Origin: an uncultured Solirubrobacterales bacterium | GTDB lineage: Bacteria; Actinomycetota; Thermoleophilia; Solirubrobacterales; 70-9 | Assembly (NCBI GenBank): GCA_963774395.1 | Contig: CAVZET010000006.1 | Span: 431,148 to 495,147, forward strand | Length of the DNA: 64,000 nt | Direction of reading: 5' to 3' | Part shown: positions 20,305-47,424 of the stretch, one piece after another | Position numbering within the stretch: the first letter of the stretch is position 1 | Layout of the letters: each line of letters opens with the position of its first letter | Notes under the pieces: model-generated | What the model was told of the DNA's origin: nothing | Seen by the model: only the letters and a program-made list of their open reading frames with translations | Databases searched by the model: none | Position numbers and translations under genes: made by a program

Positions 20305-20980
20305 TCAGGCGCCGAGCGGGATCCCGAGCCGCTCGGCGACGGCCGCGTCCTGCTGCTCCATCACGGCGCGGACGGCGGCAACGACCTCTGCCGGCGCCTT
20401 CTCGAGCGAGCCGGCATCGTGTGGCGGATCGGGGTCGTACTCGATCCCGAGCTGCACGGCCTGCGCCGCGGTCTCGCCGAACATGCGGTCGACGAGGCGC
20501 AGCGCCATGTCGATCCCCGAGGAGACGCCGGCGGCGGTGACGATCTTGCCGCGCTCGACGACCCGCTCGGCAACCGGGTTCGCGCCGAGCTCGGCGAGCG
20601 TGTCACGGGCCGCCCAGTGGGTGGCCGCGTCGACGCCGTCGAGCAGCCCGGCGGCGGCGAGCATCAGGCTGCCGGTGCAGACCGAGGTGGTCCAGGTCGT
20701 CGTCTCGTGGACGGCCGCGAGCCACTCGGTGTAGGGGTTCGACGCCCTGCAGCCAACGCCGGTTGCCGAGCCCGCCCGGGACGACGACGATGTCCGGGGA
20801 TCGGACCTCGGCGAAGGAGCGATCGGCGATGACGCCGAGCTGGCCGTTCTCGGTCCGGTGCGTACCGGCCTCGGGCGCGCAGAAGACCACCTCGGTTCCC
20901 GGCACGCTCTGCAACACGTCGTAGGGTCCGATCGCGTCGAGCGCCGTGAACCCCTCGTAGATCGGGATCGCTACCTGCAT
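20305..20980 (-). CDS. DJ-1/PfpI family protein; one frameshift near 20690
   Basis: MQVAIPIYEGFTALDAIGPYDVLQ...DIVVVPGG (N-terminus in ORF 20603..22006; AGGAGG precedes the ATG at 20980), then AAGLLDGVDAATHWAARDTLAELGA...VTAAGVSSGIDMALRLV in ORF 20305..20664. Confidence 0.8.
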
Positions 20981-22002
20981 GGTGGTTCCTCCTGGGTCGG
21001 TGTTGTCGGCTTGCGGAAGTTCAGGCCGGCGCGGCCGCGCGCGAAGCGCTCGCGGTAGCCGCTCGGGCTCGTGCCGAGCCGGCGCTGGAAGGCCCGGCGC
21101 ATGACCTCGGCGCTGGCGAAGCCGCAGCGCGTCGGCGACCAGCTCGAGCCCCTCGTCGCCGGCCTCGAGCCGCGCCCGGGCCGCCTCGACGCGGGCCTGC
21201 TCGACGTAGTCGGCGGGGCTGGCGCCGAGCTCGGCGCGGAAGCGCCGCGCGAGCTGACGCTCGGAGAGGTGGAGCCGGCCGGCCAGCGCGGCCGACCGAG
21301 AGGTCTTCGTCGAGGTGCTCGGCGATCCACCCCTGCAGGTCGCGCAGCGGATCCGAGGAGGCGGCCCGGTGGGCGAGCTGGACCGAGAACTGCGACTGGC
21401 CGCCGGGGCGCTGCGCGTAGACGACGAGCCAGCGAGCGATCTCGAGCGCGAGCGCCGGCGCCATGGTCCTCCTCGACGAGCGCCAGGGCGAGGTCGATTC
21501 CGGCCGTAACACCGGCCGAGGTGACGAACTCGCCGTCGCGGACGAAGATCGGGTCGGCGTCGACCTCGACCTCGGGGAAGGCCGCGGCGAGCGCATCGCA
21601 GTACGCCCAGTGGGTGACGGCGCGCCGGCCGTCGAGCAGTCCGGCGGCGGCGAGCACGAAGGACCCGGAGCAGACGCCGGCGGTGCGACGGGCGGCGCCC
21701 GAAAGCCGGCGGACCTCGGCGAGCAGCGGCCTCGTCGGCGACCGCGGCCCGCGTGCCGCTGCCGCCGGGAACGAGCAGCGTGTCGAGCTCAGTCGATCTC
21801 GTCCAGGCGAGCGTCGACGGCCGAGCGTCAGGCCGCTGGAGGTGCGGACCGGGTCGCCAGAGAGCGAGGCCGTCGTCAGCGAGTAGCACTGAGGGAGACG
21901 CGCCGCGGCGGTGTTGAAGACCTCCCAGGGCCCGGTCAGGTCGAGGCTCTGGATGTCCTCGTAGACGGCGAAGACGATGCGGCGAGGCTGGGCATGTGGC
22001 AA
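20971..22002 (-). CDS. GlxA-family transcriptional regulator (DJ-1/PfpI-like N-domain plus AraC-type HTH); frameshifts
   Basis: RRIVFAVYEDIQSLDLTGPWEVF...VCSGSFVLAAAGLLDGRRAVTHWAY...VTSAGVTAGIDLALALVEEDHG (20971..22002). The HTH part (LSERQLARRFRAELGASPADYVEQARVEAARARLE) is in another frame. Confidence 0.78.
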   Translation of the reverse strand: MPHAQPRRIVFAVYEDIQSLDLTGPWEVFNTAAARLPQCYSLTTASLSGDPVRTSSGLTLGRRRSPGRDRLSSTRCSFPAAAARGPRSPTRPLLAEVRRLSGAARRTAGVCSGSFVLAAAGLLDGRRAVTHWAYCDALAAAFPEVEVDADPIFVRDGEFVTSAGVTAGIDLALALVEEDHGAGARARDRSLARRLRAAPRRPVAVLGPARPPGRLLGSAARPAGVDRRAPRRRPLGRPRWPAGSTSPSVSSRGASAPSSAPAPPTTSSRPASRRPGRGSRPATRGSSWSPTRCGFASAEVMRRAFQRRLGTSPSGYRERFARGRAGLNFRKPTTPTQEEPPCR

Positions 22003-22081
22003 TCATGGCCCGATCGAGCGATGTCGTGCAAGTCGCCTATCCCACGCTTTCAGACATCAGGAAAGGCTCTCGCCGCGCGAC

Positions 22082-22175
22082 TGGTCACATTGCCTCTCAA
22101 GTTAGGAGGGAACGTGACCAGCCGACCCAGAAGGATCCTTCCGCCGGCCTCCCCTCGCTGCAATCGCCGGCCGGG
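22082..22175 (+). repeat. intergenic repeat element: 39-nt hairpin (22082..22120) plus a conserved flank box (22148..22175)
   Basis: tggtcacattgcctctcaagttaggagggaacgtgacca has the same length and TGGTCAC...GTGACCA ends as the gcvT-leader hairpins. The box cctcccctcgctgcaatcgccggccggg lies 27 nt after it, the same spacing as in the gcvT-leader unit read on the opposite strand. Confidence 0.7.
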
Positions 22176-22191
22176 CACCGGCGCGCCGCCC

Positions 22192-23016
22192 CTACCCCGC
22201 CGCCGCGGGGACGACCGCTCCGGTCGACTCCTCGTCTCGCGTCAATCGGTAGGCCAGGTAGACGGGGATGATCGAGATCAAGATGACGAGCACGGCGACG
22301 ACGTTGACGATCGGCAGCTGGTTCGGGCGCGAGAAGTTGGTGTAGATCCAAAGCGGCAGGGTCTGCTCCCCCGCTCCCGCCGTGAACGTGGTGACGATGA
22401 TCTCGTCGAAGGAGAGGCCGAAGGCGAGCAGTGCGCCGGCGACGAGCGCGCCGCGCATGTTCGGCAAGGTGACCATCCGGAACGTCTGCCAAGGCGTCGC
22501 GCCAAGGTCCGCCGACGCCTCCTCGAAGGACGTCGAGAGCCGGCGCAGCCGAGCGACGACGTTGTTGTAGATGACGACGATGCAGAAGGTGGCGTGACCG
22601 ACGACGATCGTCCACAGGCTCAGGTCGACGCCGAGCAGCTGGGTGAAGGTCGTATTCAGAGCGACGCCGGTGAGGATGCCCGGCAGCGCGATCGGCAAGA
22701 GCAGTACGAACGAGACCGTTTCGCGGCCGAAGAAGCGATAACGCGAGACGGCAAGGGAGGCGAGCGTGCCGAGGATCAGCGCGAAGATCGTCGCCACGAA
22801 CCCGACCTTGATCGAGTTGAAGAAGGCGTCGCGGGCGCCGCTGTTCTGGAAGGCGTCGCTGAACCAGTGCAGGGTGAAGCCGGGCGGCGGCCAGGTCAGC
22901 ACCGAGTCGGCGTTGAAGGCGTAGACGACGATGATCGCCAGCGGGATGTACATGAACGCAAGCGTCACTCCGGAGGCGAGCCGGAGCAGGGCGAGCGATC
23001 GCGGCGAGAGCCTCAT
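22192..23016 (-). CDS. potC: polyamine-type ABC importer permease (PotC-like); intact
   Basis: 274-aa ORF with six hydrophobic segments and the binding-protein-dependent transport EAA loop EEASADLGATPWQTFRMVTLP. Confidence 0.8.
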   Translation of the reverse strand: MRLSPRSLALLRLASGVTLAFMYIPLAIIVVYAFNADSVLTWPPPGFTLHWFSDAFQNSGARDAFFNSIKVGFVATIFALILGTLASLAVSRYRFFGRETVSFVLLLPIALPGILTGVALNTTFTQLLGVDLSLWTIVVGHATFCIVVIYNNVVARLRRLSTSFEEASADLGATPWQTFRMVTLPNMRGALVAGALLAFGLSFDEIIVTTFTAGAGEQTLPLWIYTNFSRPNQLPIVNVVAVLVILISIIPVYLAYRLTRDEESTGAVVPAAAG

Positions 23017-23034: not shown

Positions 23035-23934
23035 TCAGACATGCTCGAACGCTCCCAAGCGTCTTGCGATCAGCATGTAGACGACCATGATCAGGATCGG
23101 CACCGTCGCGAAGGCCGCCGCCAGCGGCAGGTTGTTGGTGATCGACTGCGGAGATCACGTTGCCGATGAACTGGTTGCCGGAGCCGACCAGCTGCGTCGC
23201 GATGTAATCGCCGAGCGTCAGCGAGAAGGTGAAGATCGAACCGGCGACGATCGCCGGGAAGATGAGCGGCATGACGACCCGTCTGAAGGTGTGCCCCGGG
23301 CGCGCTCCGAGGTCCTCGGAGGCGCTCAGCAGCGAGTCGGGCATGCGCTCGAGCGCCGCGTAGATCGGGATGATCATGTAGGGCAGCCAGATGTAGCTCA
23401 TGACCAGCCAGACGGCGCTGTTGCCGTACCCGATCCCGTGCAGCCCGAGCGGGTTCAGCGCCCAGTTCAGCGCGCCGTCCTCGCTGAGGATCGTCCGCCA
23501 CGCGTAGACCTTGACCAGGTACGAGGACCACAGCGGCATCAGCACCGCGACGACGAGGAGGCCCCGCGCCCGGCCCCCGCGACCTTGGCCATGTAGAAGG
23601 CGAGGGGCAGCGCCAAAAGCGCGTCGGTGACCGTGACGAGCGCTGCGATCGCGACCGTCCGCAGCGCGATCGTGCGGTAGACGGGCTCCGTCAGGATCGT
23701 GTTGAAGTTGTCGAGCGTGAAGGTGTGCTCGACCTGACCGCTGAGCTCGCCCAGCGTCCAGAAGCTGGCGATCAGCAGGACCGCAAGCGAGCCCAGGTAG
23801 CCGATCACCAGCCAGCCGATCGGGCCGGCCAGCAGGCTGCTCACCTGCAGGCGCGGGCGCCCGTGGAAGAGGCCGGCGAGCCTCCGGCCCGCCGACCTCT
23901 TCGGCTGCTGCGCGAGCGCGTCAGCCGCCTCCAC
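23035..23934 (-). CDS. potB: polyamine-type ABC importer permease (PotB-like); two frameshifts (about 23545 and 23150)
   Basis: N-terminus in ORF 23539..23934. The core SASEDLGARPGHTFRRVVMPLIFPAIVAGSIFTFSLTLGDYIATQLVG is in ORF 22097..23545. The reconstructed tail ends ARRLGAFEHV (stop at 23035). Confidence 0.75.
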
Positions 23935-28857: not shown

Positions 28858-28970
28858 CCGATTAGTTCCGCAGTGCCCGCCGGTCACAGAACCCAGATGG
28901 ATACGCAAGATCACATTCCCGCGCTTTCGACTGCGGAGGAACGGGTACTAAGCTCGGGAAACTGACGTCG

Positions 28971-36870: not shown

Positions 36871-37091
36871 CGGTGACGTTGGACCACCCGGCGGAACCAA
36901 GGTGACCTCCCGCCGGCGAGAGCAGCGAGGGAGCGGTGAACGACAGCCCACCGGAGACGACTGGTCACGAAACCTCTCAACTTGAGAGGTTTCGTGACCA
37001 CCGGCAGGCGAGAGCACCGAGGAAGAGCTCAACGCAGCCCACGACGGACGGCTGGTCACGTTCCATCCTTATCAAGGACGTTTCGTGACCA
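36871..37091 (-). repeat. three tandem 91-bp repeat units in the gcvT leader, each starting with a 39-nt hairpin (37053..37091, 36962..37000, degenerate 36871..36909)
   Basis: 36962..37000 is a perfect 19+1+19 palindrome tggtcacgaaacctctcaa-c-ttgagaggtttcgtgacca. 37053..37091 keeps the 8-bp outer and 5-bp inner stems. The inter-hairpin segments align with each other (gtgggctg...tgctctcgcc). Confidence 0.8.
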
Positions 37092-37340
37092 CTCACTCCA
37101 GCCAAAGCCCCTCGCAGGCCACCCCCCTCACTGCCAAAGGGTGTCAACCGCCCACCCCTCGTCCCAGCTCACCCCAGCCCAGCCCCTCCCGCCGGCAATC
37201 GGCCACGTGAGGCTCTCTCCCGCGGGTGGCCCACAGATCGCAGGCCCCCGAGAAATGCCGGTGGCGCAGCGGGGCCTGCGCAGCTCCCGGACAGGACCCG
37301 CGGGCCGGGGACCCTCGCCGGCGACGCGCCGGCGACGCGA

Positions 37341-45745: not shown

Positions 45746-46395
45746 AACGCGGATGTTCGCCGTATGGAGGCGCGACCCTGCGCGGCCGGCCGCTGCTCTC
45801 CCGGTACGCCCAGGGGCGACCGCACGAGGGCTTGGGCAACAACTCCCGACAGCGCTCCCCTCGGGCGGGGCGGTCCCAGACAGCGCCCGGCGAAGGGTCG
45901 CCGCGCGGAGCCGCGCCGCCCGCGAAGGGTGTGGCGGCGCGAGGGCAGTGAGGGAGGTCAGCCGGCGGCAGTCGCTGGCCCGGAGGCGACGGCAGACGCT
46001 AGATCTGGACCAATAGGAGCAGACACGTCCAAGGCGCCCAGATGTGTCTGCCGAGGCTGGTCCCTACGACCAGCAACTGCAGAGACGTCGGCTCGCTGCA
46101 GACGTGGCTGCTGGCATCGCGGCCGCAGGCTGCATGGGGCGCAAGGACGTCCACCTGGAGCAGACGTGGCTGCGCATATGGACGCTTCGCCCGCTCCCGC
46201 CGATGCCCAAAGGCGATAAACCGCTGACCGGAGCCGGTCCAGCGCCGTAGTCACCCGCCCCCGCGCAACGAGCGTCAGCCGTCAACCCCCCACGGCGAGG
46301 CTGGGAGCGTCGAGGGCGGTCGTTAGGGGAGCGATAGTCCGCACGGACGTGAGCGACCCCAACGGCCGCCATCGGCGCTCCCAGTCCGCCGCCGA

Positions 46396-47424
46396 CTAAA
46401 CCCCGATGGAGTTCTGGAAGAGCGTGTAGCCGATGCCGGCGCAGACGGCGGCGATGATCCAGAAGCGGAGCATGATCTTCGTCTCCGACCAGGCCATCAT
46501 CTCGAAGTGGTGGTGGATCGGGGCCATCAGGAAGACGCGGCGGCGGAAGGCCTTGAACGTGAAGACCTGGATCGCGACCGAGAGCGCCTCCATGACGAAG
46601 ATGCCGCCGAGGATGATCAGCAGGACCTCGGTCTGGGTCATGATCGCGAGGGCGCCGATCGCGCCGCCGAGCCCCAGCGATCCCGTGTCCCCCATGAAGA
46701 TCGTCGCCGGGTGTGCGTTGAACCAGAGGAAGCCGACGCAGGCGCCGACGAGGCAGGCGGAGAGCAGCGCCAGCCCCTGCTGGCCCGTCGTCACCGTGAT
46801 CGCCATGTAGGCGAGAAACACGATCGCGCAGCATCCCGCGGCGAGCCCGTCGAGCCCGTCCGTGAGGTTGACTCCGTTACTTGCGCCCGCGAGGACGAAG
46901 AAGGTGAGGACCACGTAGGCCGCCGGCCCGAGGTACAGGTGCGCGCCCCAGACGCGCAGCTGCAGGTTCGGGTCGAGGCCGACGGACTTGAACGCGAACC
47001 ACCAGAGCACCACGGCGAGGGCAATCTGGCCGAGCAGCTTCCAGCGCGCGGAGAGGCCGAGTGACCGTCGCTTGACGATCTTGACCCAGTCGTCGGCGAA
47101 CCCGAGCCCGGCGCTGCCAAGGGCGACGAGGAAGACGGCGAGGCTCTCGGTGTCTCGATCGCTGAGCACCAGGTAGGGGATCGAGATCGCCGCGAAGATG
47201 ATCAGCCCGCCCATCGTCGGGGTGCCGGCCTTTTCGTGGTGGCCCTGCGGGCCCTCCTCGCGAATTTGCTGGCCGAACTCGCGGTTGCGGAGGATCTCGA
47301 TGAACTTCGGGCCGAGGAAGATCGTGATCAGCATCGCCGCCATGCCCCCGATCAGGATCTGACCGCGGTCGATCACCGTCGAGGCGACGTCGCCGCCGAT
47401 CGCCGCCAGCAGCAGGCCCGTCAC
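46396..47424 (-). CDS. mraY: phospho-N-acetylmuramoyl-pentapeptide transferase; intact
   Basis: HHEKAGTPTMGGL, GFADDWVKI, NLTDGLDGLA, MGDTGSLGLGG, APIHHHFE. The GTG at 47424 overlaps the murF stop (GTGA). Confidence 0.92.
   Translation of the reverse strand: MTGLLLAAIGGDVASTVIDRGQILIGGMAAMLITIFLGPKFIEILRNREFGQQIREEGPQGHHEKAGTPTMGGLIIFAAISIPYLVLSDRDTESLAVFLVALGSAGLGFADDWVKIVKRRSLGLSARWKLLGQIALAVVLWWFAFKSVGLDPNLQLRVWGAHLYLGPAAYVVLTFFVLAGASNGVNLTDGLDGLAAGCCAIVFLAYMAITVTTGQQGLALLSACLVGACVGFLWFNAHPATIFMGDTGSLGLGGAIGALAIMTQTEVLLIILGGIFVMEALSVAIQVFTFKAFRRRVFLMAPIHHHFEMMAWSETKIMLRFWIIAAVCAGIGYTLFQNSIGV

Follow-up and report, generated by a model that had tools for sequence, protein, structure and literature searches.

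A solo hairpin-box element downstream of a potC-like gene in a Solirubrobacterales genome, probably a truncated unit of a lineage-specific mosaic family of intergenic repeats

Introduction

Several described families of short repeats lie between bacterial genes. BOX elements of Streptococcus pneumoniae are composites with the layout boxA - n x boxB - boxC, in which tandem internal units, variable in number, stand between a head and a tail; they are rich in stable stem-loops, number tens of copies, occur also in partial or solo versions and have no known transposase of their own. In proteobacteria, REP sequences are extragenic palindromes, short and imperfect, whose base is conserved while the top varies; they combine into mosaics (BIMEs) with motifs conserved between the palindromes, lie preferentially at gene 3' ends and in convergent spacers, and have G-T wobbles biased to one strand. 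They go with a gene for a REP-associated tyrosine transposase (RAYT, of the Y1 type), which REPs typically flank. MITEs, such as Correia elements of Neisseria, ERIC and RUP, are small, non-coding, intergenic and often co-transcribed with their surroundings. Mycobacterial MIRUs, finally, are intergenic tandem units of 40-100 bp from an actinobacterial group, whose number varies between relatives.

The element studied here lies in 64,000 nt of DNA from an uncultured Solirubrobacterales bacterium (GCA_963774395.1), a stretch that we call the window; the assembly comprises 3.5 Mb in 11 contigs with 71% GC and is rated 61% complete. A preliminary description had pointed out a hairpin with a downstream box between a potC-like gene and a gene for a GlxA-type regulator, had matched it to hairpins in the gcvT leader on the other strand, and had argued for a dispersed, REP/MITE-like repeat of at least 94 nt rather than a gene-specific riboswitch. 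We find that positions 22060-22175 are probably a solo truncated unit (hairpin, linker and one box-bearing arm) of a lineage-specific mosaic superfamily of intergenic repeats, whose closest analogues appear to be the pneumococcal BOX elements and the REP/BIME mosaics. The mosaic family is previously undescribed, and a literature search on the motif and on repeats in this order returned nothing relevant; the element itself is of an ordinary kind in a little-studied lineage.

Results and Discussion

A hairpin and a box in the spacer downstream of potC

The potC-like ABC permease gene (22192..23016, minus strand; Pfam BPD_transp_1, E = 4.8e-15) and the gene for the GlxA-type regulator (20971..22002, minus strand; DJ-1/PfpI plus AraC-type HTH, with a frame that is broken in the assembly) are separated by 189 nt, mostly taken up by the repeat element. 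Read on the plus strand, the hairpin module occupies 39 nt at 22082..22120 (TGGTCACATTGCCTCTCAAGTTAGGAGGGAACGTGACCA). Its TGGTCAC/GTGACCA base of 7-8 bp is followed by a middle section, TT.C/G.AA, that is paired in this copy, by the upper stem CCTCT/GGAGG and by a loop of 7 nt. Folded as DNA, the hairpin reaches -10.1 kcal/mol (z = -5.1); as RNA, it reaches -19.0 on the plus strand and -20.3 on the minus strand. A 27-nt linker (22121..22147, plus strand), little conserved even among orthologous copies, leads to the box CCTCCCCTCGCTGCAATCGCCGGCCGGG at 22148..22175 (plus strand), which the potC stop codon faces at a distance of 16 nt. On the other side, 22060..22081 (ggaaaggctctcgccgcgcgac, plus strand) is a candidate remnant of a left arm: its by-eye match to the left arm gaaaaggctcgcccagtgcgag at C6:86914 is weak, and in two sister species, G005 and G002, only the hairpin-adjacent GGCGAC is conserved. 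The inverted box expected further left in a complete unit is absent; of its two arms, the copy retains the right one and no more than ~20 nt of the other. Its closest relative, the hairpin and arm at C6:86963-87051 (81% over 67 nt, E = 9e-11), is part of a short unit that has a box arm on either side, in inverted arrangement.

Neither the hairpin nor its association with the box is a product of base composition. The window contains TGGTCAC-N20-30-GTGACCA three times (at 22082, 36962 and 37053), whereas 100 dinucleotide-preserving shuffles did not produce it once. The box GCTCCCTCGCTGCTCTCGCCGGCGGG of the gcvT spacer stands 27 nt from the hairpin 36962-37000 on the minus strand, the very distance reported at first and found again here for the 22082 copy. 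The 10-mer core of the box, CCCTCGCTGC, is exact at offset 32 from the 22082 hairpin and recurs with at most two mismatches at offsets 30-36 in ~28 other hairpin flanks, with only 59 occurrences genome-wide in 7.0 million strand positions (both strands). We then aligned the 58-nt flank of the 22082 hairpin semi-globally with all other hairpin flanks and compared the scores with those of 500 dinucleotide shuffles, all of which it exceeded: the best score was 49 (the C6:86963 flank) against a shuffle maximum of 36, and the mean of the ten best was 27.2 against 16.8 +/- 1.5. With the two C6:869xx copies removed, this mean was still 23.2, compared with 16.6 +/- 1.6 and a shuffle maximum of 22.4. 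The flank similarity is no high-GC artefact.

Both the covariance model of the family (R1, see below) and the side on which the box lies support an orientation opposite to the gcvT array, as had been proposed, and the copy points against local transcription: the 22082 hairpin scores 50.6 bits on the plus strand and 44.3 on the minus strand, and the 37053 hairpin 52.4 bits on the minus strand and 41.2 on the plus strand. The orientation of a solo unit is nonetheless weakly defined, because the arms flanking a founding unit are inverted copies of each other. Reading the arm at 22082 as the head of an array would give it the same orientation as the gcvT copy; however, array spacers outscore heads as matches to this arm and the asymmetry of the hairpin disagrees as well, and the opposite orientation is therefore kept.

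Copies of the hairpin are dispersed and organised in mosaics

R1, built from 25 distinct hairpin copies, gave 64 strand-hits in the genome, which correspond to 38 hairpin sites; hairpins with exact ends number 19. All 38 sites lie in non-coding DNA, as judged from GC3 frame plots made here rather than from curated annotation; in these plots, all 23 loci are free of coding signal. The copies adjoin unrelated genes in both orientations, mostly at gene 3' ends, with 11 loci in convergent settings, about ten in co-directional ones and one in a divergent one. Dispersal and presence in both orientations are thus borne out.

Most of these hairpins sit inside elements larger than the 94 nt initially described. 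At ~13 loci, one to four hairpin units are embedded in what we call a Type I mosaic. This begins 10-40 nt past a stop codon with a head of ~270 nt, made of a conserved stem-loop of ~100 nt and a G-rich stretch with an inverted box; hairpins follow, with spacers of 52-54 nt between them in which the box stands at +27 (period 91-93 nt), and a distinct tail hairpin ends the mosaic. The ftsZ-gcvT spacer holds a full example (36871..37335, minus strand), with the head directly after the ftsZ stop, then the G-rich box region, array hairpins at 37053-37091 and 36962-37000 and a degenerate tail hairpin at 36871-36907, all on the minus strand. In Type II, a single hairpin forms the middle of a ~300-nt palindrome, and the box is ~82 nt away. 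Inverted box arms are found at C6:86871/87030 and inverted head ends at C6:798233/798817; most copies, that at 22082 included, are one-armed. The box of the 22082 copy recurs as an arm motif in the spacers of arrays, inverted in their heads, and in other mosaic families. Hairpin and box do belong together as first described, in an element that is larger and more modular than 94 nt and is part of a mosaic superfamily.

Other modules accompany or replace the TGGTCAC hairpin. The head stem-loop, at 37240-37335 and 15 other sites, also occurs alone; it has an outer stem CCCGCGGGT/ACCCGCGGG and an inner stem CGCAGGCCCC/GGGGCCTGCG. At 13 of the 16 sites, it follows a stop codon directly, in sense orientation, and it looks like a 3'-end RNA element or a module that targets terminators. 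An additional hairpin module, GACTTTGCC...GGCAAAGTC, takes the place of TGGTCAC hairpins or stands beside them in some mosaics (G008:C9, the gcvT spacer of G002, and C7:649750-649830 in G000). In the window itself, the mraY-murD spacer (45899-46397) contains a 650-bp non-coding insert with at least two other multi-copy modules (up to 96% identity; ~15 and ~14 copies genome-wide) and with the box again (GGGCAGTGAGGGAGG, 45943-45957), which is therefore common to several mosaic families that lack the TGGTCAC hairpin. A CRISPR array was considered for the tandem units and rejected: here the spacers are conserved between arrays and the hairpin interiors variable, the reverse of CRISPR.

The hairpin covaries and appears constrained on one strand

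Two parts of the hairpin evolve differently. In the 8-bp foot, no pair is changed on both sides in any copy. Above it, about half of the copies have a 3x3 purine loop (AAA/GAA) at positions 9-11/29-31, and in the upper stem all seven pairs show two-sided changes. The covariation score is 0.275, against 0.136 +/- 0.017 in shuffled alignments (none of 500 as high), and the paired fraction is 88.8%, against 24-44% in slid controls. When array hairpins are read from head to tail, the mismatched cells of the stem comprise 23 G-T and 3 A-C. Since the family copies are related, there are fewer independent events than the covariation and wobble counts would imply, and the distinct mismatch variants number ~7 for G-T and 2-3 for A-C. 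The excess of G-T over A-C indicates a hairpin that is kept foldable on one strand only. Taken with the heads that follow stop codons in sense orientation, the strand-biased wobbles suggest selection on one single strand, probably RNA, and not just a repeat at the DNA level; this sequence pattern also suggests that the mosaics are read as 3' untranslated RNA.

The family is confined to a small clade

Of the genus, 14 species genomes were searched, and four contain the hairpin pattern: 19 times in the genome under study (G000), 39 times in G002, 22 times in G005 and 4 times in G008. The exact box is confined to the same four genomes. The pattern has no match in the other genomes of the genus, several of them near-complete and highly contiguous. 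Copy number consequently ranges from 0 to 39 among species of a single genus. The period of the arrays differs as well, being 83 nt in G002 but 71 nt in both G005 and G008. Further afield, R1 found nothing in 150 other genomes of the phylum, the hairpin pattern had no match in viral contigs, and a stricter version of it (GGAAC on the 3' side) had none in JGI metagenomes.

A scan of 185,579 species genomes recovered the 12-bp base TGGTCACGAAAC...CGTGACCA in 37-nt palindromes of two unrelated actinobacterial MAGs, MFD04212.bin.2.162 and Microthrixaceae SSF14; the base is found in Thermoleophilia-like, Microthrixaceae and other MAGs. In the palindromes of these distant look-alikes, the base reads TGGTCACGA.AC...GT.TCGTGACCA and is extended by TTCTG/CAGAA; one MAG holds 13 copies with a conserved GGCGATATACGCC core. 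They lie in short spacers, which come in all gene arrangements, and have no Rfam match; one is 20 nt ahead of folD. A link to one-carbon metabolism, raised by gcvT and, through the look-alike, by folD, was discarded, as the 13 distant and the 38 local copies adjoin unrelated genes.

Orthologous spacers and the possibility of local co-option

Orthologous sites show how occupancy varies. At the potC 3' flank, G005 (in two versions) and G002 carry hairpin and box at the same position as G000; G010 and G007 (spacers of 463 and 456 nt) carry a different palindromic element that ends in the same box; and the element is absent from G009, G006 and G013, where the conserved block described below is followed by the potC stop after ~46 nt (G009) or ~90 nt (G006 and G013). 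Four other loci were compared. The ftsZ-gcvT spacer holds a Type I mosaic in hairpin-bearing species, a 430-nt element of another family in G010 and ~90 nt in G007. The Type I locus C6:798, occupied in hairpin-bearing species, is empty in G010 and G007 (73 nt each); likewise, C5:177 is empty in G010 (117 nt) and G007 (108 nt). Locus C6:86870 measures 216-669 nt in hairpin-bearing species, 2863 nt in G010 and 1230 nt in G007. The presence of filled and empty sites among relatives means that occupancy changes on the scale of species; at the same time, all five compared loci are shared among hairpin-bearing species, so that the copies look old, not recently mobile. The repeat in the potC spacers of G010 and G007 and in the ftsZ-gcvT spacer of G010 is ~380-430 nt long and palindromic, with a variable central hairpin and arms of ~45 nt (GCAGG.T.CAGGCCGGG..TTGCAG.GAGGG).

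Between G000 and the two sister species that share the potC-site copy, outer stem and box are conserved. The changes are in the interior, at 12 of the 39 positions, and two compensatory exchanges of base pairs are among them (13-27, C-G to A-T; 14-26, T-A to C-G). As the flanking genes differ by only ~12%, the copies at this site may be separate arrivals or conversions and not the outcome of simple descent. In the reading that we favour, a box-bearing element was settled in the post-potC spacer before the split of the five occupied species; in the clade of G000, G002 and G005 it bears a TGGTCAC-type hairpin today, its interior having since been remodelled, probably through exchange with other copies of the family.

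The same observations could also speak for local co-option, in which the hairpin would end or insulate the pot transcript upstream of the regulator promoter, as a terminator or stabiliser without U-tract, kept by selection. It stands 71 nt past the potC stop and directly upstream of the conserved block 22020-22058; it has been retained at one place in three species with its compensatory changes; as RNA, the minus-strand (probably transcribed) form equals or exceeds the plus-strand form in stability in all three orthologues; and the family as a whole prefers gene 3' ends. Several points weigh against co-option. The hairpin lacks the marks of an intrinsic terminator: a promoter and terminator scan of 21900-22300 found no site, and no U-tract follows the hairpin on either strand (GUCGCG on the minus strand, GCCGAC on the plus strand). 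Moreover, three species that keep the genes do without any element and two have a different one, and the orientation to transcription is opposite to that of the array copies. All considered, we regard co-option as unlikely.

As a solo unit of the mosaic superfamily, the 22082 element plays no gene-specific sensing role; we infer that it is probably transcribed with potC from the minus strand and would then form a stem-loop of about -20 kcal/mol, whose local effect, if any, would be generic: a block to 3'-to-5' exonucleases, pausing or partial termination of transcription.

Searches for a spreading mechanism

Of the two kinds of element to which the repeat had been likened, REP and MITE, it has the general character only, and no mechanism by which it spreads came to light. 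No Y1/RAYT gene (PF01797, Y1_Tnp) was found in G000, in the 13 other genomes of the genus or in the two distant MAGs, in searches whose positive controls matched and that covered four hairpin-bearing genomes 52-75% complete. The GTAG-type tetranucleotide is absent beside the hairpins, which are preceded by GAG, GAC or CAG and followed by GTCG, CTCG or GCCG. No target-site duplication was seen at the junctions of filled and empty sites, where the spacers are too diverged for a strict test. As for a parent insertion sequence, 17 matches to head ends were obtained in this 61% complete genome, none of them paired around a segment of 0.7-3 kb. Two C5 copies 7.5 kb apart had been candidates for the borders of a transposon or an rRNA operon, and were rejected: what lies between them is sulfotransferase, purQ-like and MMPL genes, without any RNA family.

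These searches bear on a further explanation, in which the hairpin is the recognition structure of a trans-acting protein (a non-RAYT nuclease or transposase, or a protein that binds RNA or single-stranded DNA), and the family is mobilised or bound by it. An invariant 8-bp base, a 3x3 purine loop and a free upper stem are the usual pattern of a protein-recognised hairpin, the recurrence of the 12-bp base in two unrelated actinobacterial MAGs, with 13 copies in one of them, is consistent with it, and so are the differences in site occupancy between species. The missing Y1_Tnp genes, the lack of inverted end pairs around a transposase-sized segment and of visible target duplications, the apparent age of the shared loci and the absence from viral contigs all speak against this explanation, which we judge to be improbable. 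A related idea, somewhat less improbable and still quite unlikely, is that base and purine loop together are the docking site of a new hairpin-binding protein shared by distant actinobacterial lineages, amounting to a REP-like system without RAYT; given the strand-biased wobbles and the placement after stop codons, such a system may act on RNA 3' ends.

Gene-specific control of the GlxA-type regulator or the pot operon, through a cis-regulatory RNA or an operator, would fit the position in the spacer upstream of the regulator gene, conserved in three species, and is nevertheless extremely improbable, given the 38 copies beside unrelated genes, the 11 convergent loci, the occurrence in both orientations, the missing element in the corresponding spacer of three species with the genes retained, the lack of an Rfam match and a self-complementary, co-varying interior that is unexpected for the spacer of a double-stranded operator. 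The Rfam searches covered the window at the gathering threshold and both loci at E values up to 10; they gave no family match, only chance matches (mir-1307, Sr006 and CRISPR-DR29), and did not find the glycine riboswitch. Unrelated neighbours, both orientations, 0-39 copies per species and the absence of an Rfam match lead to a dispersed repeat, not a gene-specific riboswitch, as originally argued.

Comparison with described repeats and implications

With BOX elements, the family has in common its intergenic location, the head, variable tandem units and tail, the wealth of stable stem-loops, the tens of copies, the lack of a known transposase of its own and the partial or solo versions. BOX belongs to another phylum and is probably unrelated to it in sequence; the likeness is architectural only. 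Here each internal unit joins a 39-nt hairpin to a spacer of 52-54 nt and measures 91-93 nt, compared with 45 nt for boxB, the head is ~270 nt long and lies right after stop codons, and the 22082 copy is reduced to one unit and one arm. The REP/BIME traits listed above, from the conserved base and variable top to the wobbles, are shared too. The differences are the absence of Y1/RAYT in the 16 genomes searched and of a GTAG-type tetranucleotide, units in direct tandem whereas palindromes alternate in REP mosaics, and a copy number in the tens, not hundreds. Like MITEs, the elements are small and non-coding, and some units have inverted arms; unlike them, most copies are one-armed, no target-site duplication or parent insertion sequence was found, and tandem arrays are atypical of MITEs. 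MIRUs, which resemble the arrays in size and variable number, lie inside operons and contain short reading frames coupled to flanking genes, whereas the units here are hairpins, with periods (91-93 nt, and 83 or 71 nt in sister species) that are not kept to multiples of three.

The mosaic family fills many gene-3'-end spacers in one small clade. Its recognition removes a candidate riboswitch or operator from the pot-GlxA region and, by extension, from the gcvT leader; more generally, such repeats mislead the annotation of leaders and small RNAs. They also mark a rapid turnover of spacers, the same spacers being empty, short or hundreds of nucleotides long in sister species, and could serve as markers for strain typing. 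The strand bias of the wobbles and the sense-oriented heads offer a way to test whether the family acts as RNA, protecting 3' ends or terminating transcription.

Further observations on the potC-regulator region

Next to the repeat, on the regulator side, alignments show a block conserved in six species (TCCCACGCTTTCAGACATC, 22020..22058, minus strand). Because it is conserved with or without the hairpin, it lies outside the repeat; it is a candidate promoter or operator region upstream of the regulator gene, whose start is near 21995-22002, probably at the ATG at 21995 by comparison with G005. The block resembles ATTCCCGCGCTTTCGACTGCGG upstream of ku (28915-28945).

An exact look-up of the potC protein in public assemblies returned no record. 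The frames of the GlxA-type regulator and of potB (20603-22006 and 23091-23934) break and resume in another frame, and near the start of the regulator G000 and G005 differ by a 1-nt indel in a C-run. These breaks are probably assembly indel errors, real pseudogenes being the alternative; such errors would also account for the low completeness score. In G005, contigs C4 and C7 contain the potC-regulator and gcvT-ftsZ regions twice, in the same order and with 84-94% identity, and this bin may be a mix of two strains or include a large duplication.
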